Shown here piece by piece: positions 5,037 to 59,748 of a stretch of 64,000 nt of DNA. The notes beneath the pieces are model-generated. The model made no database searches. It saw only the letters and a list, made by a program, of their open reading frames with translations, and had not been told where the DNA came from. The first letter of the stretch is position 1. The number at the start of each line of letters is the position of its first letter. The translations under genes and the position numbers were made by a program. The stretch covers positions 150,175 to 214,174 of the forward strand of contig JBAZFH010000001.1 in assembly GCA_041653535.1 (NCBI GenBank), given 5' to 3'. This DNA is from Patescibacteria group bacterium (GTDB lineage Bacteria > Patescibacteriota > Patescibacteriia > JACRDY01).

Positions 5037-5867
5037 ATGCTTTTGGAAAATACCCTTGATGTTTTAGAACACTACGGTATTCGTCCGCGTAAAGGCTATG
5101 GGCAGAATTTTTTAGTTGATCAAGAAGTTCTTGACGACATTGTTAATAGTGCTGATTTGAAAAAGAACGACAAGGTTTTGGAAATCGGTCCTGGTTTGGG
5201 GGTTTTGACGGAACGGTTGGCGGCGGACGCGGCAAAAATTTTGGCGATTGAAGCCGATCCGTTGATGCGTAAAATATTGGTGCCAAAGTTTAAAAAAATA
5301 TTAAACGTGGAAATAATGGCTGCTGATGCGCTGCAACTATCGTCAGGAGATATTAGTGAAAAGTTGGGCGATGATTACAAGATTGTAGCTAATTTGCCGT
5401 ACAATATTACGGGAAAATTTTTGCGTAAGTTTTTGACCATGTCGCCTTTGCCAAAAAGTTTGGTTTTGATGTTGCAAAAAGAGGTGGCGGAAAGAATCGT
5501 GGCACGAAGCGGAAAAATGAGTCTGCTGGCTGTTGCCGTGCAGATTTATGGCGAGCCAAAAATAGTTCGGGTGGTGGCTAGCGAGAGTTTTTACCCGCAG
5601 CCGGAGGTAAAGTCGGCAATAATAAAAATAGTCAGGCGACCGGAGGATTTTTTCGTTAAACAAGGGGTGGATGCCAAGAAATTTTGGCAGATAGTGCGCA
5701 TTGGTTTTTCTTCTCGACGCAAACAATTGCAAAACAATCTAAGTGCCGGTCTAAAAATAGAAAAAGATAAGATAATAAAGGTTTTAAATAAAGCTAAAAT
5801 AGCAGAAAAAGCTCGAGCGCAGGAGTTGTTCTTAAATGATTGGATTAGGTTGGTTAAAATGTTTTGA
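5037..5867 (+). CDS. rsmA: 16S rRNA (adenine1518/1519-N6)-dimethyltransferase
   Basis: GQNFLVD motif, the SAM-binding LEIGPGLGVLT and NLPYNI. Confidence 0.9.
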   Translation: MLLENTLDVLEHYGIRPRKGYGQNFLVDQEVLDDIVNSADLKKNDKVLEIGPGLGVLTERLAADAAKILAIEADPLMRKILVPKFKKILNVEIMAADALQLSSGDISEKLGDDYKIVANLPYNITGKFLRKFLTMSPLPKSLVLMLQKEVAERIVARSGKMSLLAVAVQIYGEPKIVRVVASESFYPQPEVKSAIIKIVRRPEDFFVKQGVDAKKFWQIVRIGFSSRRKQLQNNLSAGLKIEKDKIIKVLNKAKIAEKARAQELFLNDWIRLVKMF

Positions 5868-5892
5868 CATAGTTTGAAAAAGTTTGTATAAT
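5864..5892 (+). promoter_or_regulatory. consensus sigma70-type promoter TTGACA-N17-TATAAT
   Basis: Perfect hexamers with a 17-nt spacer overlap the rsmA stop, ~50 nt upstream of the 5942 gene. Confidence 0.5.
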
Positions 5893-5941: not shown

Positions 5942-6901
5942 TTGTATATGCCACAAAAATTTTTAGTGGAAAAAAAAGACGATTACTCGGCTGGTACGGG
6001 CGATGAAATCCCTGTAGCATTGCCTTCTCAAAAAATCGGGGTTAAAAGCGACAAACGTTTTGTCACTCTGATAGTGGTGGTAGTGATAGCGACCATAATT
6101 TTAGGTTTATGGCAGATCAAGCGCAATGTTAGTTCTCCTTTTGAAGCGCTTTTGAGAAAAAGTCCGAAAGTTGATCTATCGGCTTTAAATAAAGATTCGA
6201 ATGAGGAAGCTAAAAAAACCGATACTGACGGCGATGGTTTAAACGACTGGGATGAAACCAATATTTATACCACTAGTATTTATCTCGCTGATACTGACAG
6301 TGACGGTATTGATGACGGAGTAGAAGTGTTGCAGGGTAAAAATCCTCTTTGTCCCGAAGGTCAGGATTGCAGTTTCGAAGAATCAATAAAAAGCGATACG
6401 CAAACAACAAATACTAACGATAGCCGCCCCGTCGGTATATCTACCGATGTTTCGGGAAGCGATTTATTGCAAGATAGTTTTGCTTCGGAAGAGGTTAACA
6501 GTCTTGGCTATACCGCCCAGCAAACCAAGGATTTGGCTGCTAAGCTTCGCGACGTACTGGTCGCTGACGGCGGTATGGACAGAGCGGCTCTTGATCAAAT
6601 ATCCGACGAAGAACTTTTGGCGCAGTTTTTGGAAGTAGCGAGGCAGGATAGCGGTACCGGAGCGACAGCTAATACTAACAGCCAGACAACAACTAACACC
6701 AATACCGCGGCTGCCAGTAGCGAAACCAAAGAGGTGAGCAAGGAGGATATGATCGCCGCGGTGGACACGATGGCCGGGACGGAATTGCGACGGCTGCTAC
6801 TCGAAAGCGGTCTTGATCAGGCAGTAATTGATAAAAGCAATGATGATACTTTGCGAAAACTATTAAAAGCGGTTCTAGAAGAACAGGCTGCCAAGGAATA
6901 A
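5942..6901 (+). CDS. membrane-anchored protein with DxDxDG Ca-binding (thrombospondin type-3-like) repeats
   Basis: Single TM (TLIVVVVIATIILGLW) followed by DTDGDGLNDWDE and DTDSDGIDDGVE motifs and an acidic low-complexity tail. Confidence 0.6.
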   Translation: MYMPQKFLVEKKDDYSAGTGDEIPVALPSQKIGVKSDKRFVTLIVVVVIATIILGLWQIKRNVSSPFEALLRKSPKVDLSALNKDSNEEAKKTDTDGDGLNDWDETNIYTTSIYLADTDSDGIDDGVEVLQGKNPLCPEGQDCSFEESIKSDTQTTNTNDSRPVGISTDVSGSDLLQDSFASEEVNSLGYTAQQTKDLAAKLRDVLVADGGMDRAALDQISDEELLAQFLEVARQDSGTGATANTNSQTTTNTNTAAASSETKEVSKEDMIAAVDTMAGTELRRLLLESGLDQAVIDKSNDDTLRKLLKAVLEEQAAKE

Positions 6902-6955
6902 TAATCGAGGCAAAAAAAGTTTTTATTTTTTGGTAAAATATAGTATAATAAGGCT

Positions 6956-9900
6956 ATGCAAAAAAAGGCGAACAAAGTAATTATTAGCTTATTGCTAGCG
7001 ATTTTTTGTTTGTTTTTATTTTTACCTTGGCATAGTATTTTAGCGCAAGATTTGGGTGGAGGAGAGGTTGTTTATGGACCGGAAAATAATCCTAACCCCA
7101 TAACTCCGGCAACACCGGCTGGTGCCGCAGTCATGGTTACTGATATTATTAACAATACGGCAGCGAATATTAAAGAGGTAATAACTTCAATAAGGCAAAA
7201 GATAGTGCAAGAATTGGAAGCTTCTTTGAAGTTTTCGTTGGTCAGTTCACTGGATCAAATGTCGCGGATGTTTGCTCACGAAGTAGCGCTTAAAGTTGCT
7301 CAGGGTCGCGACGGACTTCGGTCTTTCAAAGATGCCAGAACTTGGGAGCAAATCTGGACCGACACTTGGCAGTCGGGAGCCGGTGAATTTATCGGCACTT
7401 TTTCCGAAGACTTTTTTGGCGATTCCTCGATATTATGTAATCCCAATCCTTACGTCAGATTTTTTATTACTATTTCTTTGTTTGAAACAGAAGTACCTAC
7501 GCCAAAATGCGACTGGCGTGAAATTCAAGAAGCCTATACCGGTCTTGCCGAACAAAGCCCGAAAGAGTGGTTGTCGCGTTTACAGTCTTCTTTCGAACCG
7601 AATCAGAGCGATGCCGGCGCTTTTTTGATCGCTCTTGATGAGCTGGAAAAGGAAAAAAATAAAAAAATTGAAGCTAATTTTACTCCGCTGTCAGTGGATT
7701 TTTCCGGTCGCTATCTGGATAACACTAACGCCGGAAAATTTTTGACAGAAAGCAGAAAAGATCTGGAGTGGTTTGTCCAGACGTCTTTTGTCGACATGCC
7801 TAGGGATATAGCGGTTGGTAAAAGCCTTACCGCTATTACGGTTGGTTCGATTCTTGCTCCCGCCATTCAGCAGTTTTCTCAAACCTATATATCCGAAGTG
7901 ATGAAAACAGCCCTCAAAGATTTATGGGGACTGAAAGATCCTTGTGATATAAAAGATAAAAAAGGTCAGGCGGTGATTTCTTGGTGCGACGACGATGGCG
8001 CTCACGAGCAGGGTCCTCCGGGCGGTACGGGTACCGGTTATGCCGGCAGTTATAATCAGACAGAGCAAGAAGCGCAAAATACGCTATCTTCTCTTTTGGT
8101 AACCAAAGTTAGACTGGGCGGTGAATACGATATTGTCAGCGAGCTCGCGGCTTGTCCGAATCAATATCCAAATTTGAATAATTGTACTATTAACCAGGGT
8201 TTTGCTGACGCAATTTTTCAAGAAATGACTCTTCAGTCAGCCGTGGATCAGGGGTTGGTGGACGGCAATTGGGCTTTTGGTTATAGCTCCCCGCAGACCG
8301 GTCTGGAGCCCGGTCCGGATGACGGTATTTCTCAGAGCAATATCAAAAAATTGCGAAAATATAGAATCGTGCCAACCGGTTGGGAACTGGCGGCAAATTT
8401 GATTAAGCAAATTTCAGAAGAGCAAAAATCAAACAATACCAAATCTTTACGTTCACTAATGGAAGATTTTTATAAAACCGGTCCTAATAAAATTTGCGAC
8501 GGTTTTGCCGATGACGGCAGTTTAGTTGATTCAGAAGAAAGTCCGTTTTGCGGTCTGGTTGACCCGGAATGGGTGCTCAAAGCACCGCAACAAAAATGTA
8601 CCGCCCTTGCTTACGGACCGATTCATATTACCGGCGGGATGCGTCAGGAAGATTGCGCCAACACGGTAGATTGTATTTTGGAAAACGACGACGGCAGTTG
8701 TCGTTCTTGGGGACAATGTACGCGGGAACGCAATATTTGGTGGTTTGACGGTGATAGTTGTCCGGCGCAATATGATAGCTGTCAAGAATTTGCTCGCACC
8801 TCTGATAGTCAGAAATTTAGTTATCTTAAAAACAGTTTGCAATATACGCAGTGTAATTCTGCCAACGCCGGTTGCAAATGGTATGCCGTGCAAAAAGACG
8901 GTGATAATTGGCAGAAATCATCAGGTATTTATTTCGATCGTGATGTCGAAGAATGTAATGAATCAAATGCCGGTTGTAACGCGGTAATCCGCAGCTATTC
9001 CGGATCCGGTACCAACCTGGTAGTCAACGGCAGTTTTAGCGATTATTATATCGCCAATGACGGAGATGAAAAAAATTATCATTTTTACGATTGGACTTAT
9101 AATGGTAGTGGAAAATTGGTTCCAGAAGAAGGAGACGTGGCATCTAAAGGTTCTGTGATTATTCCTGCTGGCGGTCGGATCGAACAAAGTGTTGATGCCG
9201 GATATTACCTTGGCGGCAGGACGTTCATTATGGCTTTTGACGGTCAAAATTGCGGCAGTAACACGGCGATTCAGTTTGCCGCGGTCAATACTACTCTTGG
9301 AGCCATTGCCGCTGATGCGGATTTAACGCAGTGGAATTCTTATTCCATTACTTATACTTTCCCGGCAAATACCAGCGCTCACGTCATGGATTTTAAATTT
9401 TTATCGGTTTCCGATTCATGCCATTTTGACAATATCCAAATAGAGGAAGGTAAAATCAGCAGTGGTTATCGCGAATATGGTAATAATAATATTGCCTATC
9501 TAAAAATAGCTCCGGAATATTTAAACTGTGACGGTAGCGCTACAGAGCCTGGCGAATGCGATAATTACGCCCCGACATGTTCTGCCGATGATGTTGGTTG
9601 CCAAAATTATACCGATTTGTCGGACAGTACTGTTATTCCCGGTGTAGTAACCGACGAAGATTATTGTCCTGCTGAGTGCGCTGATTATAAAACCTACAAA
9701 CAAACAGCTTCCAATTTCTTTAAAGAAAAATTTCCCGTGTATTTTATTGCCAGCACCGCTACCAGCTGTTCGGCAAAACAATCTGGTTGTGAAGAATTTA
9801 CCAATTTAGACAATTTGGCTGCCGGCGGAGAGCAAAGGGAAGATTATTCATTTTTGCGCCGTTGTCAAAAACCGGCACCATTTAGCGGTGACTGCGAGTC

Positions 9901-12900
9901 TTATTATACCTGGGAAGGCAGCGAGGCGACCGGTTATCAGTTAAAACTTTATACTCTCAAAGGCGATCCTACCGGCACTGCCGGATCGCGTTCGCCTTTT
10001 ACCATTACTGTTGTTGATCATCCGGTGGATTGTCAGGCTTATTACGGAAAACAGCCGGGAGATGAAAACTATGATGCTTTTATATCTGGAAACTGCAAAG
10101 AATTTTATGACCAAAAAGGACAGCTTTATTATCGGCTTTTAGCAGATACGGTTTTATGTACCAGCGACTGTCATCCTTATCGTTTGACTACGGTACAAAA
10201 CGGCGTTGATTTCTTTGATAAAGCTGACTGCGTCGCTTCCGGCGGATTGGTAACGCAATGTGAATATAACGGCGCTGACGGCGCTATCAACACCACTTCT
10301 TGTATTGCTCAGGGAGGTATTCACTACAACGGTATTTGCTACAATTTAAATAGCGCTAGTGCTTGTACTAGCGTGGGAGGTAATAGATTTGAAGATTATG
10401 CCAGCCAATGCCGATATTTGGCAACCGCCAGCGGCAGCGTTAAATGTTCCGCTCCTGGCTGTCAGGCGTATAAAGGTAATTTTGCCGGCAACAAACGTTT
10501 GGTTTTTGAGGACGGGTTTGACGGTGCGCAGGTAAATGACCAGTTGGTTGATAAATGGTCTGGCGGTATCGTTGTCAGTGAAGCTTATTCGGTTGGCTAT
10601 CATTCTTATCGTAATTTGGATTTAAGCAGCGCCGAGGTCACCCGTTCATTAGAAGTAAAAAATACTGACGGTAATGTAATTGATTATGAGGCAAGGCAGG
10701 GTCAGTTTTATACTCTGTCTTTTTGGGCAAAATCAATGCAGGAGAACAGTCAAATCAAAATATATCTTTCCGGAGTCATCGGTTCAGATCAAGAAAATGA
10801 TCCTTGGAGCTATTTTGACTACGGCAGTGATGATGCCGGTGCTGGTTATCAGGCGACTGTTTTTGGTAACGAGTGGCGTTATTACCAGCTTGGTCCGGTG
10901 TTTGTTGATTGGTCGGCGAACAACGCTAGTTTGGTTTTTGAAAAAATTAACAGTAATTTTTATATCGACAATGTTAAGCTGGAAGAGGTAAAAGATACGG
11001 CTTATTTGATTCGTAATAGCTGGAAAACCCCAACTGCCTGCGATCAAAATCACTCCGGGGCAGCCGCGCCGCAATATATGTTGGGCTGCAAAGCCTATCA
11101 GGACAGCAATAACGCTTTGCAATACTTCAAATCATTTACTCGTTTGTGTGAGCAATCGGTAATCGGCTGCGAGGCGGTGATTAAGACCTATAATTCTTCT
11201 TTGCCCTATCAACAGGTATTTAATCGTACTTGTTCTCTTGACGCCGCTTGTTCGCCGTGGGAAGGAGATACTAGCTGTCCTTGTTCGATTAGTCGCGACG
11301 GTGGTACGGTAGAGGTCTGTAAAGTAGCCTCCGGCGCAACCAATTGCCTTTATACTTATACTGAACCTTCGGCGATGATGACTTCTGGCGGCGCTGCCGA
11401 GGTGAATGTGGCGCACGATAAATTTATTTTTGTAGTCAATAAATCTCAGTATTCTTGTACTGCCGACGATCGTGGTTGCAGTGTCGTTGCTGAGCCGGAA
11501 GTCGGTCAAGACGATCAGTTGATTATGGATGGTAGTGGAATAAAGATTAAAGAAACAAAATATTTCCGTAACAATCCCGATAAATACGATACTGATCTTT
11601 GTACCGCCGATGCTTTTGGTTGCGACGAGTTTAGCGCGGCTGTCGAAGGGTTAAACCCGATTTATTTCAAAGATCCGCGAGACAAGCTGTGTGAGTACAA
11701 GCAGCATCCGACTTACGGTTCTTATGGTTGGTATAAAAAAGGCACAAATGAAGCGTGTCCGGAAAGTGCATATGAAATAGCCACAACCTGTCATTATGAC
11801 GCGATTCTCGGCGGTTGGAAGAAAAATCTGACAGATGATGAAGTTTGTGAGTACAAAAACTCGGCGTGGTATAACAAAGATACCGACACTCTTTGTGTTT
11901 ATAACACCACTACTCTGGCAACCAAGGTGGGAGATTGTGTTGCGCCGACTACCACTTTAGGTTGGGCAAAACAGTGTCCGAGCAAATACACCAGTTGTAC
12001 CAAATTTGTCGATCCGGTCGGTAGCTCCCAGCAAGACAATAATGTTTATTATTATTTGGATAATAATAATTTAAACCGTAATGAATGTTCTGCCGGTTCT
12101 TCTCAGCGAGAAGGTTGCGTGCTTTTCAATAATTACAACACAATTGACTGGAAATCAGCGGAAAAAAATCTTTCCTGGACGCCGCCGTTAAATAAAAGCG
12201 CGGCAGCTACTTATCAAAAAAGTGACGAGGAAGCTAATGGCAGAAAAGTGTCTCCGGTAAACTGCGCTAATGAAGCTACTGCTGGCAACGACTGGAAATA
12301 TTGCGGAGAAAACGAAGCCAACGATTTAATCAAGGTTCGTCGCGACCGTGTTTGCGCTGAATGGATTGATTGCGAAAGTACTTACGAAACTTTTGACAAT
12401 GAAACCGGTAAATTCGTGCCGATTTGTCTGAAAACCATGCCTTGCACTCAAAAAGACCCTGGAGAAGGCGAGTCCGGAGTTTTGAAATGTCGCAGTCAAG
12501 AAGCGATAAAACCGCAATACGGCGCCACGTTTATGCTTTGGGCTCCAGGTCAAAATTGTGGCAACGGATCTGTAAATACCGGTGAAGAATGCGATGATGG
12601 CAATAACACTGATGGTGATGGTTGTACTTCTGATTGTAAAAAAGAACCGGTAGTGTTTCGACCTTTGAGTAAATCCGAAGGTATGGCATCCGCGTACAGC
12701 GTTAACGGACCGCTTGATATTAACAAATATCTGAATCGTTCGCTTAAATGGGACGGCTATGAATATTCCGGTTATTCGATCGCTGATTTGCGTCCGGCTT
12801 GGTCGCTGCACCAAATCGCCAAAGGAACATGTAAAAACGATCCGAACAAGGTTTGCTATTTTAGCAAGGACTGCGGCGGCGCAGAATGCGTTTTCGGGTC

Positions 12901-15721
12901 TGATTATGAACTCGCGTATGTTGATATTGATATTAATGGTAATACTAATATTTATGGTGTTGACGCCGGAGGCGTTAAAATAAATAAAGAATGTCGAGGT
13001 TATCCTGATCAAGCCGCGCCTTTCCGCAAGGGTTTGGCAGACAATAGCGCTTTTAATAAAGCTAATCTATGTAGCATTACAGGAGACTGTGATTGTAGTT
13101 ATATTAAATGGGACGTGAATGATGCGGCGACCGCCTTTTTGCCGATTGATTATACTCCAAAAGAAGTTAATGGAGGCGTCTATGATCGGATTTGCACGCA
13201 AGCGGTAAAAGATGGTCCTAAAGTTGTTGGCGATCCGTGCCGGGTAGATAGTGACTGCATGTCTCCGGAGGACGAGCCGGATTATGTTAGCTCTGATTCT
13301 GGTACTTCCTATCTTCCTTATGTCGATCCGGTTAATGGTGGGCAGACAGCGCCGGCAACCCCCAGCCCGTATGATGTATGTAAAAGACCAACCAAAGAAC
13401 TAAAATATCTGGGCTGGAAGGGGTATTGTTTGGAAAAAATAAAAAATGTGGCAATTAACGGTGCGGCGAACGAACATCCTTGTTTAACCTGGATGCCGAT
13501 AGATCTGTTGCAGGGAGAGGCCGATTCGTACAGTAATATGCCGACAGCTGAGGCTGATATTGCTAATAATCAGCATTATTATTGTTTGGCAGCCGACGGT
13601 AATGCGCCATATGTCAAAAATATTATCAATAATTATGGCAGCAGTTATAGTAATCTAAAAAATTGTGCCACTGGCTATTCGAGTCCGGATTGTGCTTTTG
13701 CCTGGTACGGCACCGAAATAAGCGGAAATACTTTTTCTCCGACTAAAACTCTTCCCGAGGCAAGAATTGTTACCGATATAACGAATGGATCCAGTCTAAA
13801 AATAGAAGTGCAGCCAACCAGCGAACAAGGTTCAACCTTTATGGAGTGGCAGCCGACTGATACGCAGGCATTTAATAAAAACGACGTCAAAGCGATGTCT
13901 TTCGAGATAATAGATGCTGTTGAGAGCTGCCAGGATTCAACCACTAAATCTTGGCCGCAAGATATTTTGACCGGTGAACAAGGTACTGGCGGTTGTGTTG
14001 GAAGAAAAGTAGTATTTTTTAATGATATAAACGATCGCACTACTTTCTATCGTCAAAAGGCTGACGGAGTGAATTTATACGGACGAGGAGTCAGGGCAAG
14101 CGCGGCAATGACTTATAACTATCCTAATAAAATAATAAAGACTCAAAACGCATCTTTGGAATATTATTGGGATCAGCACGAGTCTACTCTTCCCGAGGAT
14201 CAAGAGCCGGAAATTTTGCCCAACAGGTCGTTTCATGTTTATCATTATGCCAAGTTTCAAACCGGTAATAACTATAGCGAGGTCTGGATTTACACAACTA
14301 GTATATTTAGGAACGATGCGGAGTGTCCCGGATGGAATATTTTTGATCCTCTTTTCAAGATCGGTTGTCACCACGGACCATCCGGACAAATACAAGTTTG
14401 GTGGGATAAAAACGGTTATTTAAGTCGAATCATATTGATTGCGGAAATACATGATAACAACGCTTATTATCAAGTGAAGCCATTAGTGTATTTCAAAGAA
14501 AACTGTCGTGAGCTGGTAAGAGTCACTCCTGACACTGCCCAGGCATCGTCGGTAAAAATGACATCTGTTTGGACTGATAGAATTTGGCAAGAATCAAAAG
14601 CTAATTTCAAAGTTAAAGATTTGAAATACGGTCTTAGCGGCAATCGTACCGAACCGTTTGGTCGTTCTTACTATACTTCGGGTATTATCCCCGCAGAACA
14701 GGAATACAATATCGAAGATGGTAATACAATAGATGCCGGTATGCCGTATGGCGGAGCGTTATCCACCGGCAATAAGGTGTCGTCTTATTGTTTGGGCGGC
14801 GGTTCGAAAAACGGAGATGTTTGTCTGACATCCGACGACTGCACTAATAGTAGTTGGATTGGTATTTGTATCGGTGCAAAACCGCGGGTAACCGGGGAAA
14901 ATTACGTCGAGGGCACGCTCGCTACCGCCAAGGATCGTTTATCTGATATTTTCGCGCGTTCATACGGTGTTTTCTATGAGCAGCGCGATAATGATCAGTT
15001 TGGTGAATGGATCGAGGGAAACAATAGTACAAATGGTTGGGATAAACGCAGGGAATACGGTCATGGTGACGCGCCGATAATTCGTGGCGTGTTGTTATCT
15101 GACACAGAACAGTCAAGCGGTAATTTTGCTATTATCGGCGACGGTGACGAAGGTAGCAGTGCCGATAACTGGATCAGTGTTAACTATTCTCAGAATTCCA
15201 ACCTGATATCCAGAGGTCAGTATTGGGCGTTTATCAATTTTTACGCTTATAACAAAAGCGGCGAGCATATGCCGCTACGACAGATTAAAGTTGATTGGAA
15301 GGGTAACGGCAGCGATATCTATGCTTTGAATGAAGACGATGCCATAGCTTATGCTAATTATAAACCGCATTGTGCTGGCGACTCTGATGCAGCGGATAAT
15401 TTTGGTGATGTTTTGGGCGTATCGTGTAAAGAAAACTTTTTCTCTTTTGAACATATTTATACTTATGATCCGACTGACTATACCACCTTTAAATCAAGCT
15501 GTACTGATGGTTCCGGTCAAAAATACATAGTCGACGATTCGGTTTTCGGCACTTATTCCGGTCCGTGCAATGTTTATAAGCCAAAAGCCCAGGTAACCGA
15601 CAACTGGGGAATTTGCGGTGATGGTTGCGGTAGCGGAGCGTGTTTGGATAGCGAATGTGCGCTCAATCATGGCTGGGCGGCTTATCCGAAAAATATTATA
15701 GTTTTACCGCCACAAAAATAA
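6956..15721 (+). CDS. giant secreted/surface protein (2,921 aa), Cys-rich with CxxCDDGNxxDGDGC-type repeat
   Basis: Uninterrupted 8.7-kb ORF. N-terminal signal peptide with AQD cleavage context. >100 Cys. Motif NCGNGSVNTGEECDDGNNTDGDGCTSDCK. Opposite-strand ORFs inside it are short. Confidence 0.75.
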   Translation: MQKKANKVIISLLLAIFCLFLFLPWHSILAQDLGGGEVVYGPENNPNPITPATPAGAAVMVTDIINNTAANIKEVITSIRQKIVQELEASLKFSLVSSLDQMSRMFAHEVALKVAQGRDGLRSFKDARTWEQIWTDTWQSGAGEFIGTFSEDFFGDSSILCNPNPYVRFFITISLFETEVPTPKCDWREIQEAYTGLAEQSPKEWLSRLQSSFEPNQSDAGAFLIALDELEKEKNKKIEANFTPLSVDFSGRYLDNTNAGKFLTESRKDLEWFVQTSFVDMPRDIAVGKSLTAITVGSILAPAIQQFSQTYISEVMKTALKDLWGLKDPCDIKDKKGQAVISWCDDDGAHEQGPPGGTGTGYAGSYNQTEQEAQNTLSSLLVTKVRLGGEYDIVSELAACPNQYPNLNNCTINQGFADAIFQEMTLQSAVDQGLVDGNWAFGYSSPQTGLEPGPDDGISQSNIKKLRKYRIVPTGWELAANLIKQISEEQKSNNTKSLRSLMEDFYKTGPNKICDGFADDGSLVDSEESPFCGLVDPEWVLKAPQQKCTALAYGPIHITGGMRQEDCANTVDCILENDDGSCRSWGQCTRERNIWWFDGDSCPAQYDSCQEFARTSDSQKFSYLKNSLQYTQCNSANAGCKWYAVQKDGDNWQKSSGIYFDRDVEECNESNAGCNAVIRSYSGSGTNLVVNGSFSDYYIANDGDEKNYHFYDWTYNGSGKLVPEEGDVASKGSVIIPAGGRIEQSVDAGYYLGGRTFIMAFDGQNCGSNTAIQFAAVNTTLGAIAADADLTQWNSYSITYTFPANTSAHVMDFKFLSVSDSCHFDNIQIEEGKISSGYREYGNNNIAYLKIAPEYLNCDGSATEPGECDNYAPTCSADDVGCQNYTDLSDSTVIPGVVTDEDYCPAECADYKTYKQTASNFFKEKFPVYFIASTATSCSAKQSGCEEFTNLDNLAAGGEQREDYSFLRRCQKPAPFSGDCESYYTWEGSEATGYQLKLYTLKGDPTGTAGSRSPFTITVVDHPVDCQAYYGKQPGDENYDAFISGNCKEFYDQKGQLYYRLLADTVLCTSDCHPYRLTTVQNGVDFFDKADCVASGGLVTQCEYNGADGAINTTSCIAQGGIHYNGICYNLNSASACTSVGGNRFEDYASQCRYLATASGSVKCSAPGCQAYKGNFAGNKRLVFEDGFDGAQVNDQLVDKWSGGIVVSEAYSVGYHSYRNLDLSSAEVTRSLEVKNTDGNVIDYEARQGQFYTLSFWAKSMQENSQIKIYLSGVIGSDQENDPWSYFDYGSDDAGAGYQATVFGNEWRYYQLGPVFVDWSANNASLVFEKINSNFYIDNVKLEEVKDTAYLIRNSWKTPTACDQNHSGAAAPQYMLGCKAYQDSNNALQYFKSFTRLCEQSVIGCEAVIKTYNSSLPYQQVFNRTCSLDAACSPWEGDTSCPCSISRDGGTVEVCKVASGATNCLYTYTEPSAMMTSGGAAEVNVAHDKFIFVVNKSQYSCTADDRGCSVVAEPEVGQDDQLIMDGSGIKIKETKYFRNNPDKYDTDLCTADAFGCDEFSAAVEGLNPIYFKDPRDKLCEYKQHPTYGSYGWYKKGTNEACPESAYEIATTCHYDAILGGWKKNLTDDEVCEYKNSAWYNKDTDTLCVYNTTTLATKVGDCVAPTTTLGWAKQCPSKYTSCTKFVDPVGSSQQDNNVYYYLDNNNLNRNECSAGSSQREGCVLFNNYNTIDWKSAEKNLSWTPPLNKSAAATYQKSDEEANGRKVSPVNCANEATAGNDWKYCGENEANDLIKVRRDRVCAEWIDCESTYETFDNETGKFVPICLKTMPCTQKDPGEGESGVLKCRSQEAIKPQYGATFMLWAPGQNCGNGSVNTGEECDDGNNTDGDGCTSDCKKEPVVFRPLSKSEGMASAYSVNGPLDINKYLNRSLKWDGYEYSGYSIADLRPAWSLHQIAKGTCKNDPNKVCYFSKDCGGAECVFGSDYELAYVDIDINGNTNIYGVDAGGVKINKECRGYPDQAAPFRKGLADNSAFNKANLCSITGDCDCSYIKWDVNDAATAFLPIDYTPKEVNGGVYDRICTQAVKDGPKVVGDPCRVDSDCMSPEDEPDYVSSDSGTSYLPYVDPVNGGQTAPATPSPYDVCKRPTKELKYLGWKGYCLEKIKNVAINGAANEHPCLTWMPIDLLQGEADSYSNMPTAEADIANNQHYYCLAADGNAPYVKNIINNYGSSYSNLKNCATGYSSPDCAFAWYGTEISGNTFSPTKTLPEARIVTDITNGSSLKIEVQPTSEQGSTFMEWQPTDTQAFNKNDVKAMSFEIIDAVESCQDSTTKSWPQDILTGEQGTGGCVGRKVVFFNDINDRTTFYRQKADGVNLYGRGVRASAAMTYNYPNKIIKTQNASLEYYWDQHESTLPEDQEPEILPNRSFHVYHYAKFQTGNNYSEVWIYTTSIFRNDAECPGWNIFDPLFKIGCHHGPSGQIQVWWDKNGYLSRIILIAEIHDNNAYYQVKPLVYFKENCRELVRVTPDTAQASSVKMTSVWTDRIWQESKANFKVKDLKYGLSGNRTEPFGRSYYTSGIIPAEQEYNIEDGNTIDAGMPYGGALSTGNKVSSYCLGGGSKNGDVCLTSDDCTNSSWIGICIGAKPRVTGENYVEGTLATAKDRLSDIFARSYGVFYEQRDNDQFGEWIEGNNSTNGWDKRREYGHGDAPIIRGVLLSDTEQSSGNFAIIGDGDEGSSADNWISVNYSQNSNLISRGQYWAFINFYAYNKSGEHMPLRQIKVDWKGNGSDIYALNEDDAIAYANYKPHCAGDSDAADNFGDVLGVSCKENFFSFEHIYTYDPTDYTTFKSSCTDGSGQKYIVDDSVFGTYSGPCNVYKPKAQVTDNWGICGDGCGSGACLDSECALNHGWAAYPKNIIVLPPQK

Positions 15722-15746: not shown

Positions 15747-18605
15747 ATGACGCAATGGTTTAAAAAGAAAATTTTGCAAAAAAGAACAACGACCGCGGTG
15801 GTTACGGTTTTGATTTTAGTTGTTATTTTTTTGGTCTTGCCGCAAGTAACTCACGCCTCTTCAATATCGGAAACAATGTCTGAACTAATGGCATCCATTG
15901 TTAACGGTTTGGGTAAACTCTGTGTGATGATAATTGATGCCGTGGTTTATATCGCTTCTTATGATTCTTTTGTTATTTCCGCGCCAGTGATATACGGCTG
16001 GGTGATTATTCGTGACATTTGTAACATGTTTTTTATTTTGATTTTGTTGATCATCGCTTTAGCGACCATATTACGTCGCGATAGTTATAATTATAAATCA
16101 TTACTGCCAAAAGTGTTGATTTTGGCGTTATTAATCAATTTTTCCAAAACCATTTGTGGCTTTGCTGTTGATATTGCCCAGATAGTGATGTTGACGTTTG
16201 TTAACGGTTTCAAAGACATGGGTCCGGGTAATCTGATGAAAATGGCGGGAGTGGACAGGATGTTGTCTTTTAGTTCTACGGCGGTTCAGGTCAAATCCGA
16301 AAGTGGATCAAGTGCAACGGCTGATATTAGCGATAGTACTTTCGCTATTTATTTTTATGCCGTATTGTACCTGCTGACTTTATTGGCGGTGCTTTTAGTG
16401 ATGGCAGTGATATTGATTTTCCGCATCGTAATACTTTGGTTTTTGATTGTTATTTCGCCGATATTTTTTCTATTACTATCCTTTCCTCATGGAGAAAGCT
16501 ATGCCAAAGAATGGTCTAACGAGTTTGTTAAAGCGTTAATAGTCGGTCCGGTGTTGGCTTTTTTTATCTGGTTATCAATGGCAAGCATGGGTTATATGGT
16601 AAGCGCTGCCGGTGATGGCGGTGACGCTTTATCGGTTGATTCAACTTCTGATAGCACAATAGAGGCGACGCTTTCGGCTGGCGATGGAGCTTCGGGAACG
16701 CCCGGGTTTTTTACCAATTTTTGCGTCGCGACAATCATGCTGATAGCGGGTGTAATACAGGCGCAACAAATCGGCGGTGCGGGCGGTGCGGCAGCGTTTC
16801 GTGCTGTCGGCAAGGCGAAAGCTTTGGGTTTGAAGACTGCTAAAGCTGGAATTGGTCTTACTAAAAGTGCGGTCGGAGTCGGTTGGCAGGCAACTAAAAT
16901 TGGTGCCGGTGCGGCCGCTTTATACGGATATTCGAAAACCGGTTATGATCTTTCTCAATTTACTCCAAGTAAATTAAAAGAAAGGGCAAGCGAGGCCTTG
17001 GAGGGCGCGCGTGAAAGGCTGGAGGGTAGAGGAGCTAAAGAACGGGATCGCAGAGCAGCACAAAACCTTTCAGAAGGAAAGTCTCGCATTGAGGCATGGA
17101 AAGATCCGGCAGGAACATTTGCTCGGCAGATTGCGACTAACGGTTTTTGGTCCGGTACAAAAGGGGCTGTAAAAGATATTTTTGTCGCTAAACGCAGTGC
17201 CGCAAAAATTCAGAAAGACATTGATGATGCTAATGATCAGAAAAAACAATACCAAGATGTTTCCAATAAAAGAAATGATATCAATAATGTTCAAAGCCAA
17301 AGGGAAGCCGTGAGGAGTCAGCTAGCTGATATTGATGAAAAAATCAAGAGCGGTGCATTGTCTGCCGATAAGGCGCTGGAAGCTAAGAAGCAAAAAATGG
17401 ACCTTATTTTACGTAACGGTGATTTAGAGAAAGAAGAAACTAAATTGAAAGCAGAAGAGGCATCATTACTCAGCGGTTTGAATATTAATAAAGAAATTGA
17501 TGTGATGGAGCAGCAGTTGGATGGTTTGGAGAAAGGTTATGGTATATCGGCAAATAATGATAGAAGAGCTAAACAAGCGCAAGATGCCGTTAAAACTAAA
17601 GCCGAAGCTGAAGCTCGGGGTGATAGTGCCGCTGCCGCTGCCGCTCAAACTTTTCTTGATAAAATTTCTGATTATGAAGAAACCAAAAAGACCGTTGATA
17701 GTAGAGCGGCGCTACTTGGTCAGCGCGGCGTTTTGGGTAACATCAGCAGTCTTAATCAAAAAACTAATTCTTTGAGTAAAGAGGCGGCAACGATTAAAAC
17801 CCCGTCAGAATATACTCGTGCTCGAAGAGAAGCGGTGCAAAAGTCAGTAGAAAATTTGCCAGATGATCTGAACGATGTTGACGTGATTAAACAAGCGGTA
17901 GCCGATGCTATTGGTGATCATGATGGCAGCGCTTTGGAAATTTTACTCAATAAAGCGATGCAAAACGGGCAAATGGACGATGTTTTGATGAATCAGGGAT
18001 TTAGTGCTGATGACCAAGGATTAAAAGCGCTTCGTGATAAATATATGACGGTTTCCAAAGATCAGGGTGGTATGGGTATGAAATCGGCCGAAGCTAATAG
18101 AATCATTGGCGAATTGGAACGCCTTGCTTGGACAAAGGATCACGATCATTATGCTGCTGGCGTGGTGAACGAAGCAGGATATTATAGAGACAGAACCAAG
18201 GAAGAACAAATGGCTATACGCACGCAGAAGTCAGAAAAAGGCATGGGTAAAAGTGTTAATTTTTGGCGCCAAAGCAACGGTTCCGAGCTGGGTCATTCGC
18301 GCGCCGACGGTAGTTTTGAGGCGGACACCGCTGGTTATGCTATTGTGGCTAAAAATTTCAAAACTTTAGCTCAAGCAGTTATAGCCGGAACAGCCAGCTC
18401 TCAGATGATGGGAAAACTAAAATCAATGGTTGACGGAATACAGTCTTTGGTAAGACAGGGTGTTATTGATCATAAAGATTCATCAAGGGTTGTTGAGATA
18501 ATCAGAGAATCCAGAGTTCCTGCTTCTGGTCAAAAGTCGGTGATAAAACTTTCCAGAGAGTTTAATGATTCGATAGAGAAAGCTTTAAATAAGGGAAGAA
18601 AATAA
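15747..18605 (+). CDS. VirB6/TrbL-like polytopic membrane protein with long C-terminal coiled-coil extension
   Basis: Signal/TM at the N-terminus, then ~6 TM helices in the first 330 aa. A Gly-rich linker follows, then ~550 aa of K/E/A/D-rich coiled-coil. It sits where PrgH/VirB6 sits in Gram-positive T4SS operons. Confidence 0.5.
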   Translation: MTQWFKKKILQKRTTTAVVTVLILVVIFLVLPQVTHASSISETMSELMASIVNGLGKLCVMIIDAVVYIASYDSFVISAPVIYGWVIIRDICNMFFILILLIIALATILRRDSYNYKSLLPKVLILALLINFSKTICGFAVDIAQIVMLTFVNGFKDMGPGNLMKMAGVDRMLSFSSTAVQVKSESGSSATADISDSTFAIYFYAVLYLLTLLAVLLVMAVILIFRIVILWFLIVISPIFFLLLSFPHGESYAKEWSNEFVKALIVGPVLAFFIWLSMASMGYMVSAAGDGGDALSVDSTSDSTIEATLSAGDGASGTPGFFTNFCVATIMLIAGVIQAQQIGGAGGAAAFRAVGKAKALGLKTAKAGIGLTKSAVGVGWQATKIGAGAAALYGYSKTGYDLSQFTPSKLKERASEALEGARERLEGRGAKERDRRAAQNLSEGKSRIEAWKDPAGTFARQIATNGFWSGTKGAVKDIFVAKRSAAKIQKDIDDANDQKKQYQDVSNKRNDINNVQSQREAVRSQLADIDEKIKSGALSADKALEAKKQKMDLILRNGDLEKEETKLKAEEASLLSGLNINKEIDVMEQQLDGLEKGYGISANNDRRAKQAQDAVKTKAEAEARGDSAAAAAAQTFLDKISDYEETKKTVDSRAALLGQRGVLGNISSLNQKTNSLSKEAATIKTPSEYTRARREAVQKSVENLPDDLNDVDVIKQAVADAIGDHDGSALEILLNKAMQNGQMDDVLMNQGFSADDQGLKALRDKYMTVSKDQGGMGMKSAEANRIIGELERLAWTKDHDHYAAGVVNEAGYYRDRTKEEQMAIRTQKSEKGMGKSVNFWRQSNGSELGHSRADGSFEADTAGYAIVAKNFKTLAQAVIAGTASSQMMGKLKSMVDGIQSLVRQGVIDHKDSSRVVEIIRESRVPASGQKSVIKLSREFNDSIEKALNKGRK

Positions 18606-18622: not shown

Positions 18623-19975
18623 ATGACAGATTTTAGCTTAACAGATTATCAAATATTGGAACAATTCCGTCGCGAGACAGACGAGATTTTAGTTACCAAT
18701 AATTTACGCGATGCGGTTAATTGCCTTACCACACTGCAAAAGACTATGGCTTATGACACAAAAATAAAGGATTACCCTGACATACTGGTTGAATATAATA
18801 AAATATTGAATAAACTGCGTTTAGTTGCTTTTGCTTCACTGGACTGGAACGAAGCTTTGTCTTTTTTGAAGAATAATTTTTTGGTTGCCCTGGAAAACAA
18901 GGAATTTATTGATCTAACCGATAAAATACGCAGCAAACTTGTTACTGTTCCGACGTTAGAGGAGAGAGATAACTATCGGATGCGTTTGCGTCGGGCGCTG
19001 ACACAAAACGGGGAAAGAATTACCTTTAAACCGTTAAAAGTAGGTGATCAGACTCAAGATCCGACAGTCGCCAACTGGCTCAAATTGTATTTGGGATCAT
19101 TGGGAGTTGAGTTGGTTAATCGCGTGACTTATCAGGGTTGGTTGTCACAAGAACAAAATATTCAGCAGTTAACGGAAGAAGAAAAGGAGAGAATAAAATA
19201 TCTTTTTGAAGTATATGAAGAATTAAAACTATCTTCCGTTTCAGTCGAAGGCTGCGAAGAAACTTTTGTTATCGATGAAGATACTGACACTCCTTTGGTG
19301 CTTTATCGCGGTAAAATAGAATCGGCTCTGCCACCGCAAGAAGACATTGATTTACTGAAAAAAATCGAAGCTGTTTTAAGCGGCAAACCAGTATCATTAT
19401 CCGCCCCAACAGGCGCGCCGTCACAGCCAGCCGTTATCTCGGCACCGATACCAGCAGTAGCAAAACCGGCAACGTCAGCTATTGATCGTGATGAGATAAT
19501 CCGTAAATATGAAGGTGATGTTAAAGAAAACAGAAGTATTGAAGACAGGATGACTCAATTTACCAAGACAACTGGCGGTAAGCAAAGAGAACTGGCAAAT
19601 AGTTTGAATTTGCTTTTGACCGGTGCTGCGCCAGATAAACTAGATATTATCGCTATCCTTTATATTTTAGCGAAAAAAAATGCGATGGAAGATTTGATTA
19701 AAGATGATGATCGTTTTTACAAGCTGGTTGAACAGGATCTGACCAGACGAGGCGGTAAACAACAACTTAATGATTTTAAGATGTATCCGACAGCACCCCA
19801 ATCTATTCGATATTTTCTTGAAGTTTTATTGCAGCACAAACTAAGGCTGTCAGAGGGTGAAGCGGCAAAGTGGGGGTTGCATATTGTTAATATTTTGAAA
19901 AAATCCGGCAATGAAAAATACGGAAAAATCGCTTATTTTGATTTGGAAGCAGGAGATTTTCGTTGGCAAAAATAG
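18623..19975 (+). CDS. hypothetical protein (T4SS-cluster associated)
   Basis: 450-aa soluble ORF in operon context with 4-17 nt spacing. No recognisable motifs. Confidence 0.5.
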   Translation: MTDFSLTDYQILEQFRRETDEILVTNNLRDAVNCLTTLQKTMAYDTKIKDYPDILVEYNKILNKLRLVAFASLDWNEALSFLKNNFLVALENKEFIDLTDKIRSKLVTVPTLEERDNYRMRLRRALTQNGERITFKPLKVGDQTQDPTVANWLKLYLGSLGVELVNRVTYQGWLSQEQNIQQLTEEEKERIKYLFEVYEELKLSSVSVEGCEETFVIDEDTDTPLVLYRGKIESALPPQEDIDLLKKIEAVLSGKPVSLSAPTGAPSQPAVISAPIPAVAKPATSAIDRDEIIRKYEGDVKENRSIEDRMTQFTKTTGGKQRELANSLNLLLTGAAPDKLDIIAILYILAKKNAMEDLIKDDDRFYKLVEQDLTRRGGKQQLNDFKMYPTAPQSIRYFLEVLLQHKLRLSEGEAAKWGLHIVNILKKSGNEKYGKIAYFDLEAGDFRWQK

Positions 19976-20084
19976 GTTTGCAGTGTTAGATCGTGAAAAC
20001 GACGGAGTAAATGGCGCAAAAAGGCATTATTATTACCCTTGCTTTTTTTGCTCTTGCGCTCTTGTCTTTTAAAAACAAGCTATT

Positions 20085-21248
20085 ATGGTAGTAACTAATA
20101 TACAAGATGAAATTTTGGTCAAAGACAGCGGCGGTAATTTTTCTGTTTTAGTTGATCAATCAAATGTCGGTTACGATGCTGTTGGAGGGTCGGCAATCAC
20201 TCCGGTATTAACCGAAGACAATTTTGATTTTTCAGCATTAATTGATAAAATAAAGGGGCAGTTTAATCTAGGCTGGAAAGACGAAGTGTTGGACCGACGC
20301 TTGTATAATATTATTATTGCCATGGTGCGCGAAGTACGCAATGATATCCAGACCAAAGACGTTATGGTCAAAAGTGTTGAAGTAGGCGGGTTGGGTTTGG
20401 AGCCTATCATTGCCGATCAGGTGATTGCGGAGGTAAAAAAAACAGCGCGACATCCAATTAAGGTAAAAGAAATGGGCAGAAAAGTTTTAAGCATGGTAAC
20501 GGCAAAAACACCGTCACATGTTTTTTCTCGTCAGGAGCTAGACCATGAGATTGCTCCACCACCACCAACTGTTGTAGTTCCAACAAAAGCAGAACAGATT
20601 AGACCAATATCGCCGCTTGCGCCGAAGCCGCCAGTGCAGTCTGTCACTTATGTTGAAAAAAATTTTTTGCCAAAAAAATCAGTACCAAGGATAGAGGAGA
20701 TAAAAAAAGAAGCAAGTATCAGTAATACGCCAAAACCAACTGCCGAACACCATCTGTCGTCAAAAGCGAAACCGTTTATGGACAGTAAGCCGCCTTTTAA
20801 GATTGATTTTGGGGTAAAAACTAAGGGTCGTAATTTTGACGGTTTAGCGTCCGCACCGCAGGCAAGAGTGGTAATGCCAAATCGAGGGGAAAAAATAACA
20901 GATATTAGAGTTCCTCAAAAAAAATTAGTTGGTCCGCTGGAAGAGCTGCAGGGGTTTCGTGTCGCCGATTTTCGTCGGCTTGACCTTGATCCGCAGAAAG
21001 CGATTTTAAAAATAAAAGAAAAAATTGATTTACTCGGCAGAGAGTCTTTTAGCAAGAGGATTGAGGGCAAAAATGCTTGGCAGCAAAGTGAAGTTAACCG
21101 TCTTTATTTGGCATTGGGAAAGGCAAGTATCGAGCAAGGCAGGTCGCTAGCTGATATTATAAAAGAAAGGTCTTTAAAACAAGAACCGACGTTAAAACCA
21201 GAAGAATTCATCGCCTTGGTCAAATTAAATCAAATTTTAGAAGATTAG
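20085..21248 (+). CDS. hypothetical protein with Pro/Lys-rich central linker (T4SS-cluster associated)
   Basis: 387-aa ORF. Central PPPPTVVVPTKAEQIRPISPLAPKPP low-complexity linker. Stop overlaps the start of the PrgI-like gene. Confidence 0.5.
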   Translation: MVVTNIQDEILVKDSGGNFSVLVDQSNVGYDAVGGSAITPVLTEDNFDFSALIDKIKGQFNLGWKDEVLDRRLYNIIIAMVREVRNDIQTKDVMVKSVEVGGLGLEPIIADQVIAEVKKTARHPIKVKEMGRKVLSMVTAKTPSHVFSRQELDHEIAPPPPTVVVPTKAEQIRPISPLAPKPPVQSVTYVEKNFLPKKSVPRIEEIKKEASISNTPKPTAEHHLSSKAKPFMDSKPPFKIDFGVKTKGRNFDGLASAPQARVVMPNRGEKITDIRVPQKKLVGPLEELQGFRVADFRRLDLDPQKAILKIKEKIDLLGRESFSKRIEGKNAWQQSEVNRLYLALGKASIEQGRSLADIIKERSLKQEPTLKPEEFIALVKLNQILED

Positions 21249-21249: not shown

Positions 21250-21717
21250 ATGGCTCATCAGTTTTTGGTGCCACAATTCATCGACGTCGAGCCAAAAATT
21301 ATCGGTCCGATAACGGTACGGCAGTTTATTTTGATGGTAATCGCCATGGTGATAATTTTTATATTTTATAAATTTTCCACTTTTTGGACTTTTATTATCG
21401 CTACGGTTTTGATTTTAGGATTGTTTGGGGTTTTGGCCTTTGCCAAAATTAACGGTCGACCGTTTCATTATTTTATTTTAAATATCGTTGAAACATTAAA
21501 GCGTCCTCGACTGAAGGTTTGGGACAAAACATTGGATATGGAGGAAGTAAAAGCATTAATGGCTTATGGGACTCAAATAAAAAAGGTTGAACAAATAGCT
21601 AAAAAAGAGCCGTTAGCAGAGTCGCATTTGGAAGAACTGTCTTTGATTGTTAATACCGGCGGCGCCTATCAGTCTAGTGAATTAGATTTAAATTATGACA
21701 CCAGAAAAGAAAAATAA
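21250..21717 (+). CDS. PrgI/TcpE-family (VirB3-like) small membrane protein
   Basis: The N-terminus VPQFIDVEPKIIGPITVRQFILMVIAMVI matches the PrgI-family signature (vP.di..e.ki.G.t.RQ). It has two TM helices and lies immediately upstream of VirB4. Confidence 0.55.
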   Translation: MAHQFLVPQFIDVEPKIIGPITVRQFILMVIAMVIIFIFYKFSTFWTFIIATVLILGLFGVLAFAKINGRPFHYFILNIVETLKRPRLKVWDKTLDMEEVKALMAYGTQIKKVEQIAKKEPLAESHLEELSLIVNTGGAYQSSELDLNYDTRKEK

Positions 21718-22372
21718 AAAAGCTTCAACCAGAAAAGCGGTTCCGATCGGGGAAATCCGCAACGATACTTTAGTAATGAAGGATGGTACTTTGCGTGCCG
21801 TTTTGATGGTTTCGAGTATTAATTTTGCTCTAAAATCAGCTGATGAGCAACAGGCGATCATCTCTGCCTATATGCAATTTTTGAACTCTATTACTTATCC
21901 AATCCAGATAGTGATCCAATCGCGTCGGATTAATATCGATAAATATTTGGAAAAGTTGCAGAAGATGGAAAAAGAGCAAGTAAATGAATTACTTAAGATT
22001 CAAATTGTCGATTATCGCAAATATGTTTCCGAGTTGGTCGAATTAGGCGATATTATGACTAAAAAGTTTTATATTGTCATACCTTACAATCCACTTTCAG
22101 ATAAGCAAAAATCTTTTTTTTCTCGATCAAAAGATTTGCTTTCGCCAAAAACTATTATCAGCTTAAGTGAGAAAAAGTTTTTCGAAAGGGAAAAGGAGTT
22201 ATCCCAGCGTGTATCTCATGTCGCTTCAAGTCTGGGTAGTATCGGTTTAGCGGTCACTCGCGTTGATACGCAGGGTTTAATAGAATTGTTCTATAATTCA
22301 TACAATCCTGACGTGGCAGAGCATGAGAGAATGGTCGATGTGAACAAGATTCGTTTCGATAATATAACCTAA
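21695..22372 (+). CDS. VirB4/CagE/TrbE N-terminal domain protein (separate ORF)
   Basis: LVMKDGTLRAVLMVSSINFALKSADEQQAIISAYMQFLNSITYPIQIVIQSRR matches the VirB4 N-terminal domain pattern (KDGS..R...G.D..S..E..L..LN.aLrrL....v.rR). It ends in TAA 5 nt before the ATPase ORF, in a different frame. Confidence 0.65.
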   Translation: MTPEKKNKKASTRKAVPIGEIRNDTLVMKDGTLRAVLMVSSINFALKSADEQQAIISAYMQFLNSITYPIQIVIQSRRINIDKYLEKLQKMEKEQVNELLKIQIVDYRKYVSELVELGDIMTKKFYIVIPYNPLSDKQKSFFSRSKDLLSPKTIISLSEKKFFEREKELSQRVSHVASSLGSIGLAVTRVDTQGLIELFYNSYNPDVAEHERMVDVNKIRFDNIT

Positions 22373-59633: not shown

Positions 59634-59748
59634 AGTTATTTAATTTTAGCATAAATAAAACGCGCGGGGAAGAAGATTTTTAGTCCAATATTTTGAAATA
59701 AATCAAAAAAATTGTCTGTTGGCAACCGACTTTTTTCGTAAGTAATTA

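Follow-up and report, generated by a model that had tools for sequence, protein, structure and literature searches.

Giant cysteine-rich protein encoded within a chromosomal type IV secretion locus of Patescibacteria, a candidate for host contact

Results

The giant gene and its product

The 64,000-nucleotide stretch analysed here (positions 150,175 to 214,174 of contig JBAZFH010000001.1, assembly GCA_041653535.1, from a Patescibacteria group bacterium; hereafter the window) contains one gene which takes up about 14% of its length and which lies in a cluster of genes for a type IV secretion system (T4SS). This gene, at 6956-15721, is a single uninterrupted open reading frame (ORF) of 8.7 kb and encodes a protein of 2,921 amino acids (aa), referred to below as the giant protein; its extent and its share of the window are as described in a first-pass annotation made from the sequence alone. 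Coordinates are those of the window and refer to the + strand unless marked (-). The product is acidic (D+E 382 vs K+R 243) and contains 113 cysteines, in line with the more than 100 first reported, which is 3.9% of its residues compared with about 0.6% in 16 neighbouring proteins. At a GC content of 43%, an open frame of 8.7 kb is much longer than chance would allow. An identical ORF, likewise without interruption and encoding exactly this protein, is present on a 38-kb contig of the Logan assembly of run SRR18595300, and the long frame is therefore not the artefact of one assembler. No sign of the chimera that had earlier been considered was found, and more than 80 species have full-length homologues that are collinear with the giant protein.

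The only hydrophobic stretch of the giant protein is found at aa 3-31, and there is no other transmembrane segment. It belongs to a predicted signal peptide (aa 1-30, 6956-7045) with a basic n-region and an 18-aa hydrophobic core followed by SILA/QD, and our re-analysis thereby agrees with the signal peptide proposed at first sight. The feature is shared by the family to which the protein belongs: an N-terminal hydrophobic segment is present in 143 of 155 full-length members, the set used for all family-wide tallies of cysteine parity, anchors and motifs in this report, and a signal peptidase I-like (-3,-1) site in 152 of them.

Cysteine pairing

The number of cysteines in the mature chain is even in 149 of the 155 members (binomial p 8e-37), with a range from 76 to 160, whereas it is even in only 119 when all cysteines are counted, the signal region included. 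This parity indicates that essentially all mature cysteines are disulfide-paired and that the signal peptide is removed; C18 of the giant protein falls outside the paired set. The giant protein would accordingly have 112 mature cysteines, predicted to form about 56 disulfides. Around 50 cysteine columns are invariant across an alignment of 43 full-length members, which was also used to estimate column conservation. A recurrent knuckle, C-x(4-7)-GC-xx-hydrophobic, occurs in 7 copies against 0.34 expected from shuffled sequences, and the family median is also 7. CPR (Candidate Phyla Radiation) bacteria widely encode an MdbA-like oxidoreductase, with VKOR as its most frequent neighbour gene family (10.1101/335083); neither was found in the 64-kb window.

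The first-pass annotation had also pointed to a motif resembling the CxxCDDGNxxxGDGC cysteine-rich repeats. One such element does exist, a myxo-type cysteine-rich acidic repeat at aa 1866-1898 (12551-12649), where the motif NCGNGSVNTGEECDDGNNTDGDGCTSDC (aa 1867-1894) matches the TIGR02232 "cysteine-rich acidic repeat" above the cut-off (E 4.6e-9, 35.9 bits, cut-off 20.8). Pfam DUF4215 stays below threshold (17.9 bits vs cut-off 27) and is the sole Pfam match of the whole protein at E<=0.01. The repeat lies in a private insert within the least conserved block (alignment occupancy 0.22), and its motif is found in 1 of 155 members, this protein alone. Being present only once, and in an insert of low conservation, the repeat is not a defining feature of the protein, and "DUF4215 repeat protein" was rejected as a description of the whole. 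The myxobacterial TIGR02232/DUF4215 proteins, with which the giant protein shares this one repeat above the NCBIfam cut-off, carry it in tandem arrays, and the C-x6-C knuckle pattern of the giant protein is unrelated to it.

Domain architecture

Structural tiling of the protein had been suggested at the outset, and AlphaFold2 (AF2) models were made for aa 60-1180 (mean predicted local distance difference test, pLDDT, 61) and aa 32-620 (mean pLDDT 64). The approach was successful in finding a jelly roll and a compact alpha/beta domain, but the mean confidence was only 61 and 64 and the coverage is that of aa 32-1180. The N-terminal part begins with a conserved helical region (aa ~60-390, 7133-8125), a novel domain modelled as long helices with low confidence, and continues in the compact alpha/beta domain (aa 391-506, 8126-8473), modelled with a pLDDT of 94-98. 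The latter holds the best-conserved motif of the family, LRKYRIIPVGWELAA, in the form LRKYRI(I/V)P(V/T)GWELAA, with R467, E477 and A479 invariant. No match to these N-terminal domains was obtained in Pfam at E<=5, in PDB sequence or profile searches, or by Foldseek against the PDB, and none appeared in this region when the full-length protein was scanned against NCBIfam.

The following part alternates between disulfide-rich blocks and jelly rolls. Block I (aa 514-680, 8495-8995) consists of beta-hairpins, modelled at aa 546-586 with a pLDDT of 85-90, and has the C-x6-C knuckles C602-C609, C633-C640 and C667-C674. Jelly-roll module A (aa 687-832, 9014-9451; NGSF ... FDNIQIEE) resembles carbohydrate-binding modules (CBM) of families 4, 16 and 22. 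It is modelled with a pLDDT of 70-85, and Foldseek against the PDB gave a probability of 1.0 to CBM4, CBM16, CBM22 and a porphyran-binding CBM (8xmz_A, TMt 0.75), while the family profile matched PDB sequences at E 1e-5 to 1e-4. Block II (aa 858-1175, 9527-10480) includes a beta-rich subdomain at aa ~960-1070 with a pLDDT of about 80. It is followed by jelly-roll module B (aa 1183-1344, 10502-10987; FEDGFDG ... YIDNVKLEE), which is CBM22/CBM_4_9-like, with a family profile match to the CBM22 structure 4xup at E 1.1e-7 and sub-threshold NCBIfam matches to GTA_spike_fiber (E 8.7e-7) and a hyaluronan-binding family. Block III (aa 1362-1850, 11039-12505) contains the conserved pairs C1398-1405, C1501-1508, C1549-1556, C1674-1681, C1711-1721, C1800-1806 and C1824-1830.

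The C-terminal third is more variable. A conserved cysteine module (aa 2012-2185, 12989-13510; CRGYP ... GYCLE ... CLTWMPID) is split by a private insertion of about 100 aa, and the third CBM of the family (CBM-C; family profile E 2.5e-7 to 4d0q), which is normally N-terminal of this module (roughly window aa 1960-2070 in the family alignment), is missing or gapped here. A lineage-specific variable region without detectable relatives (aa ~2215-2500, 13598-14455; occupancy 0.2-0.5) gave no Pfam, NCBIfam or PDB matches. The moderately conserved C-terminal region (aa 2501-2921, 14456-15718; W..R ... PFG and VDWKGNG ... H.Y ... DNWG.C) has no anchor signal. A PKD-like C-terminal domain was considered from motif likeness (WGDG...HxY) and rejected, as it had no Pfam or PDB profile support. 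Overall, the family is well conserved over aa ~100-1850 and poorly over aa ~1850-2500, with a mean column identity of about 0.4-0.55 for aa 100-1000 compared with 0.07-0.3 for aa 1850-2500, and the private inserts and the lost CBM of this protein support the same polarity.

When 14 family members were scanned with Pfam, CBM_4_9 was called in 11 (best E 2.3e-13); the giant protein of the window does not reach its gathering threshold. The modules share with CBM4, CBM16 and CBM22 the beta-jelly-roll fold and the profile signature NGxFE ... YxDNIxL, but unlike in CBM enzymes no catalytic partner domain is present. By modelled fold and by profile the jelly rolls are thus lectin-like, and they are putative glycan binders.

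Family and distribution

A word-indexed protein search returned 49 relatives, all of them hypothetical Patescibacteria proteins of 1.6-3.7 thousand aa (kaa), the best with 40% identity. A HMMER profile scan with the N-terminal 500 aa gave 2,309 clusters (formed at 50% identity) at E<=1e-3 and 1,164 at E<=1e-30; nearly all of the 150 matches listed are 2.4-3.4 kaa long with the domain at the N-terminus. By a back-translated peptide pattern the gene was located in 150 species-representative genomes, and named carriers are Falkow-, Buchanan-, Uhr- and Kerfeldbacteria or "Parcubacteria group". The record names and the published description of the locus are the basis for placing them in GTDB class ABY1. 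The giant protein shows the features that characterise the family, namely the N-terminal motif given above, about 50 invariant cysteines, a length within 2.4-3.7 kaa and a gene located between those of the TSP3 protein described below and of VirB6. Searches of IMG/VR viral contigs gave no relatives of the giant protein, and a viral origin of the gene was rejected on that ground.

Three homologues (P0026, P0041 and P0047) have extra modules in the variable part, among them Dockerin_1, a clostridial-toxin receptor-binding N domain, laminin-G and a sialidase lectin, which suggests domain shuffling at the host-facing end. A literature search found no paper describing the family, which appears to be a large and undescribed family, judged from its sequences, of Parcubacteria-group/ABY1-type Patescibacteria.

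Gene neighbourhood and transcription

Directly upstream of the giant gene, at 5948-6901, lies a gene for a protein of 317 aa which spans the membrane once and carries acidic calcium-binding repeats of the TSP3 type and an acidic tail. Its transmembrane segment is at aa 36-64 of the ORF as numbered from a TTG at 5942, and an independent assembly also called 317 aa. The TSP3 protein is a candidate anchor or partner of the giant protein, and it is preceded by Sua5 and KsgA.

Directly downstream, the linkage to a T4SS-like operon that was noticed at first is borne out. A 952-aa "extended VirB6" (15747-18605) has about 7 N-terminal hydrophobic segments and a hydrophilic C-terminal part of about 600 aa; its Pfam TrbL/VirB6 match (E 5.4e-5, 23.5 bits) is just below the cut-off, and a second gene caller places its start 63 nt further on, which shortens it to 931 aa. 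Two conserved genes follow (18623-21248), which encode 450 aa and 387 aa and are syntenic in homologous loci; their products had no Pfam or NCBIfam match. Then come PrgI/VirB3 (21250-21717; Pfam PrgI 29 bits, cut-off 27), a 225-aa TraC-N/TrsD-like ORF (21695-22372; Pfam TraC-N just below the cut-off) and the VirB4 ATPase, a 611-aa P-loop ORF (22378-24213; P-loop_TraG E 1.7e-28). VirB4 is split, in that the TrsD-like ORF, which overlaps PrgI by 23 nt, and the P-loop ORF together correspond to the TrsD arrangement reported for Patescibacteria. A 197-aa protein with one N-terminal transmembrane segment and without Pfam or NCBIfam match (24231-24824) could be a VirB8-like subunit, a type reported mainly for ABY1. 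The run continues with a ComF-type phosphoribosyltransferase (24872-25525), a small membrane protein and RecG (26580-28682), ComF and RecG both being identified by Pfam.

None of the ORFs scanned in the 64-kb window belongs to the relaxase or VirD4/coupling protein families. The combination of T4SS with comF and recG is typical of class ABY1 (PMC12102498), and the locus has the set of the MPF-FATA-like (mating-pair formation type FATA) ABY1 system of Patescibacteria, i.e. VirB4, TrsD, VirB3/PrgI, VirB6, comF and recG without relaxase or coupling protein. The Patescibacteria T4SS analysed earlier (PMC12102498, PMC10633639) has the same machinery (VirB4, TrsD, PrgI/VirB3, VirB6), is chromosomal and has no relaxase; these analyses do not mention the giant gene or its TSP3 partner, and genes without a family match carry no annotation and are drawn in grey in the published synteny figure.

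Just beyond RecG, two paralogous 421-aa ORFs at 29269-30534 (-) and 30550-31815 (-) show near-threshold matches to T4SS_pilin (PF18895, VirB2-like) at aa ~136-190, and the former also ends in a VanY/M15 D-Ala-D-Ala peptidase domain. They may supply this T4SS with a pilin or with a cell-wall hydrolase (a VirB1 analogue). Housekeeping genes make up the remainder of the window, which includes a nucleotide-salvage cluster at 58149-63570 (-) with GatB, thymidylate kinase, a 492-aa ThyX with duplicated Thy1, dUTPase, a dNMP-kinase-like protein and dCMP deaminase.

The order KsgA, TSP3 protein, giant protein, VirB6-like protein, two uncharacterised genes, VirB3, TrsD and VirB4 is found on one strand in more than 80 species, and it is kept across species sharing only 25-30% identity. 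Among the 65 loci whose 5' flank is long enough, 62 have the TSP3 gene immediately before the giant gene and 61 have KsgA upstream. By tblastn, a VirB6-like gene immediately follows the giant gene in 40 of 50 loci, and in at least 3 of the exceptions it has only been moved further away, through inserted genes or through a division of the giant ORF.

A sigma-70-type promoter-like site with 12 of 12 consensus positions (TTGACA-17-TATAAT) is located at 5864-5892, at the end of KsgA and before the TSP3 gene. It is the only perfect sigma-70 consensus within 4.4-26.6 kb and, on its sequence, is likely to be the start of the T4SS operon. The gaps in the same-strand run are 17-54 nt (54 nt from the TSP3 gene to the giant gene, 25 nt from there to VirB6), and no intergenic terminator-like sites were detected on the + strand of this run. 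Because the sole 12/12 promoter precedes the conserved TSP3 gene, with short gaps and no terminator behind it, the giant gene is the second of the unit and not its head, as had been supposed. The TATAAT box noted 6 nt before the ATG is indeed present at 6944-6949. It has no -35 element, a TATAAT-like box occurs near the start in only 12 of 79 homologous loci, and many starts are 10-20 nt from the upstream stop; the leaderless transcript that had been suggested was accordingly rejected. A Shine-Dalgarno-like motif within 45 nt upstream of the giant start was found in 1 of the 79 loci. Such near-absence throughout the family makes the missing motif before this gene uninformative, and is consistent with weak use of Shine-Dalgarno sequences in these bacteria.

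Discussion

From the sequence of the gene, its relatives and its locus, the giant protein shows itself to be an exported and heavily disulfide-bonded protein whose gene is conservatively embedded in a T4SS transcription unit. The function we tentatively favour, at slightly less than even chances, is that of an extracellular arm by which the chromosomal T4SS of ABY1-type Patescibacteria, a system without relaxase, makes contact with the host. The host-attachment or receptor-binding role suggested for the protein at first sight fits because of the lectin-like jelly rolls of CBM4/22 type and the variable C-terminal third, and it gains from the T4SS linkage; homology to PrgB or anchoring in the manner of PrgB is not supported.

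The steps of such a mechanism may be outlined as follows. The protein would be exported by the Sec pathway, and the predicted signal peptide would be separate from the mature chain. The approximately 112 mature cysteines, with pairing shown statistically, would then be oxidised to about 56 disulfides to give a rigid, protease-resistant and acidic rod or tree of about 300 kDa. The most conserved end, with the helical and alpha/beta domains (aa 60-510), may hold the protein non-covalently on the cell. It would probably be attached there to membrane components encoded in the same transcription unit, namely the upstream transmembrane TSP3 calcium-binding protein and/or the large hydrophilic part of the extended VirB6. 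The distal jelly rolls and the fast-evolving C-terminal third would bind glycans or proteins of the host envelope and so dock the T4SS channel, for which the linked comF and recG in ABY1 hint at nucleic acid as cargo. In this way the giant protein might act like the adhesins of mating-pair formation, such as PrgB and TraN, while being unrelated to either.

The T4SS of Patescibacteria has been found essential for epibiotic growth in Saccharibacteria (PMC10633639), and both its role and the way in which it reaches the host have been described as "completely unknown" (PMC11665869). The essentiality was observed by transposon sequencing (Tn-seq) in the saccharibacterium Southlakia epibionticum, the only member of the Patescibacteria tested genetically. 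A dedicated survey of T4SS in Patescibacteria detected "no adhesins such as PrgB" (PMC12102498), and as no adhesin was found there, the contact function of the system is left without an assigned protein.

It is of interest to compare the giant protein with PrgB of the Enterococcus plasmid pCF10, whose place in the operon it had been said to occupy. The position is indeed similar, as both are large Sec-exported proteins encoded upstream of VirB6, VirB3 and VirB4 in an MPF-FATA-type set, and a role in cell-cell contact is presumed for both, but the similarity is positional and topological only. The giant protein is 2-3 times larger, has about 56 disulfides, and has neither sequence or domain homology to PrgB nor a sortase anchor. 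No LPXTG motif is present anywhere in it, and among the family members a relaxed LPx[T/S/A]G motif occurs in the last 80 aa of 1 of 155 and a C-terminal transmembrane or hydrophobic segment in none. Likewise, GbpC/AgI-II-type polymer-adhesin domains and Ig-like stalk domains were absent from the Pfam scans of the giant protein (E<=0.01) and of the 14 members. Homology to PrgB was rejected for lack of the LPXTG anchor and of PrgB/AgI-II domains. PrgB is not known to contain disulfides in any appreciable number.

TraN of F-like plasmids offers another parallel, since it is a cysteine-rich extracellular accessory protein of a T4SS with conserved cysteines thought to form disulfides. The variable region of TraN determines the recipient receptor, and this logic of a conserved core with a variable tip is the same in the giant protein. 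TraN has about 600 aa and belongs to a diderm outer membrane, whereas the giant protein has about 2,900 aa, is soluble and comes from a monoderm-type cell; homology to TraN was rejected, as no Pfam TraN match was obtained. Patescibacteria have been described as monoderm (PMC12857230). A third comparison is with the giant proteins of Vampirococcus lugosii and Patescibacterium danicum (PMC8080830, PMC11809585), which are likewise very large, predicted to be extracellular, encoded by host-dependent ultra-small bacteria and proposed as adhesins. Those proteins carry FhaB, DUF2341, WD40, PKD and integrin-like domains and are, as described, neither cysteine-rich nor T4SS-linked, and the giants of P. 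danicum have no full-length homologues, in contrast to the widespread and collinear family presented here. What appears to be new is therefore the family itself, its two N-terminal domains, the knuckle modules and the partner gene, while the kind of protein, a T4SS contact protein or a giant surface protein of CPR bacteria, is already known.

Several points weigh against a host-contact arm. The proposal is built on sequence and predicted structure. The argument from gene order is weakened because the unrelated housekeeping gene KsgA is equally syntenic (61 of 65 loci), and a few genomes have genes inserted between the giant gene and VirB6. The giant protein has no transmembrane, LPXTG or lipobox anchor, so that its retention on the cell is an assumption. 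The CBM-like jelly rolls are also generic scaffolds, as in phage fibres and Cry toxins, and Pfam CBM_4_9 was not called in the window protein itself. The docking role given to the N-terminal domains is pure inference since these domains match nothing known, and the AF2 models, with mean pLDDT of 61 and 64, are mediocre.

Some of these points lead to the best-surviving alternative, which we consider unlikely although a real contender, that the giant protein is a stand-alone surface coat or adhesin which shares only its neighbourhood with the T4SS and serves attachment or protection independently of it. Streamlined genomes keep gene order even for the unrelated KsgA and Sua5, giant surface proteins without T4SS linkage are common in CPR bacteria (PMC8080830, PMC11809585), and in some genomes other genes separate the giant gene from VirB6. 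However, the gene belongs to a same-strand run that has gaps of 17-54 nt, lacks a terminator and lies behind the only strong promoter, and its adjacency to VirB6 persists family-wide despite 25-30% identity.

It is also conceivable, but rather improbable in our view, that the giant protein is itself a conduit or penetration device of the T4SS, a disulfide-stapled tube or needle whose helical N-terminus would enter the host envelope and which would replace the outer-membrane core and pilus of diderm systems. The very large size, the rigidity expected from the disulfides, the long N-terminal helices and the placement before VirB6 would suit such a function, and tubular structures have been seen between a cultivated patescibacterium and its host (10.64898/2026.06.21.733656). 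Foldseek, moreover, gave a weak likeness to Vip3/Cry-type toxins through the jelly rolls, but the CBM fold by itself accounts for these matches, whose TM-scores are about 0.1. The protein has no amphipathic or transmembrane segments beyond the signal peptide, oligomerisation is not supported by evidence, and the nearby VirB2-like pilin candidates could form a tube. In the wider form of this idea, to which we give the same low probability, the giant protein and its transmembrane TSP3 partner would represent an unrecognised class of monoderm T4SS subunits, a disulfide-stapled conduit or harpoon to the host for uptake of nucleic acid or nutrients; if true, the helical and alpha/beta domains of the N-terminus would be new T4SS folds.

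Still less probable is a secreted polysaccharide-binding scaffold similar to the scaffoldins of cellulosomes, for nutrient scavenging or biofilm and with no role towards a host. The multiple CBM-like modules, the Dockerin_1 domain in two homologues and the TSP3/dockerin-like calcium-binding repeats of the upstream partner are what one would expect of it, but no catalytic or cohesin domains were present in the 14 scanned members and dockerin is rare; a scaffold would leave the T4SS linkage unexplained, and scaffoldins have nothing that corresponds to the conserved N-terminal domains.

That the ORF is an assembly chimera or a decaying pseudogene has nothing positive in its favour beyond one homologous locus with a split gene, and is effectively refuted by the identical uninterrupted ORF in the Logan assembly, the collinear ORFs of 2.4-3.8 kaa in dozens of species, the roughly 50 invariant cysteine columns and the preserved cysteine parity. 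In the locus concerned (L012, 9626-17880 of a Falkowbacteria metagenome-assembled genome), the giant gene is divided into ORFs of 1,574 aa and 1,089 aa, for which a frameshift or misassembly may account, unless the allele is naturally divided or in decay.

Taken as a host-contact arm, the giant protein is a concrete candidate for a determinant of host contact and specificity inside the T4SS locus of a whole class of bacteria. With 38-80 disulfide bonds per chain, the family would represent a striking case of extracellular disulfide engineering in minimal organisms that are often presumed to be anaerobic. It also offers two apparently new domains, and it is tempting to speculate that its variable region might allow host range to be predicted from metagenomes.

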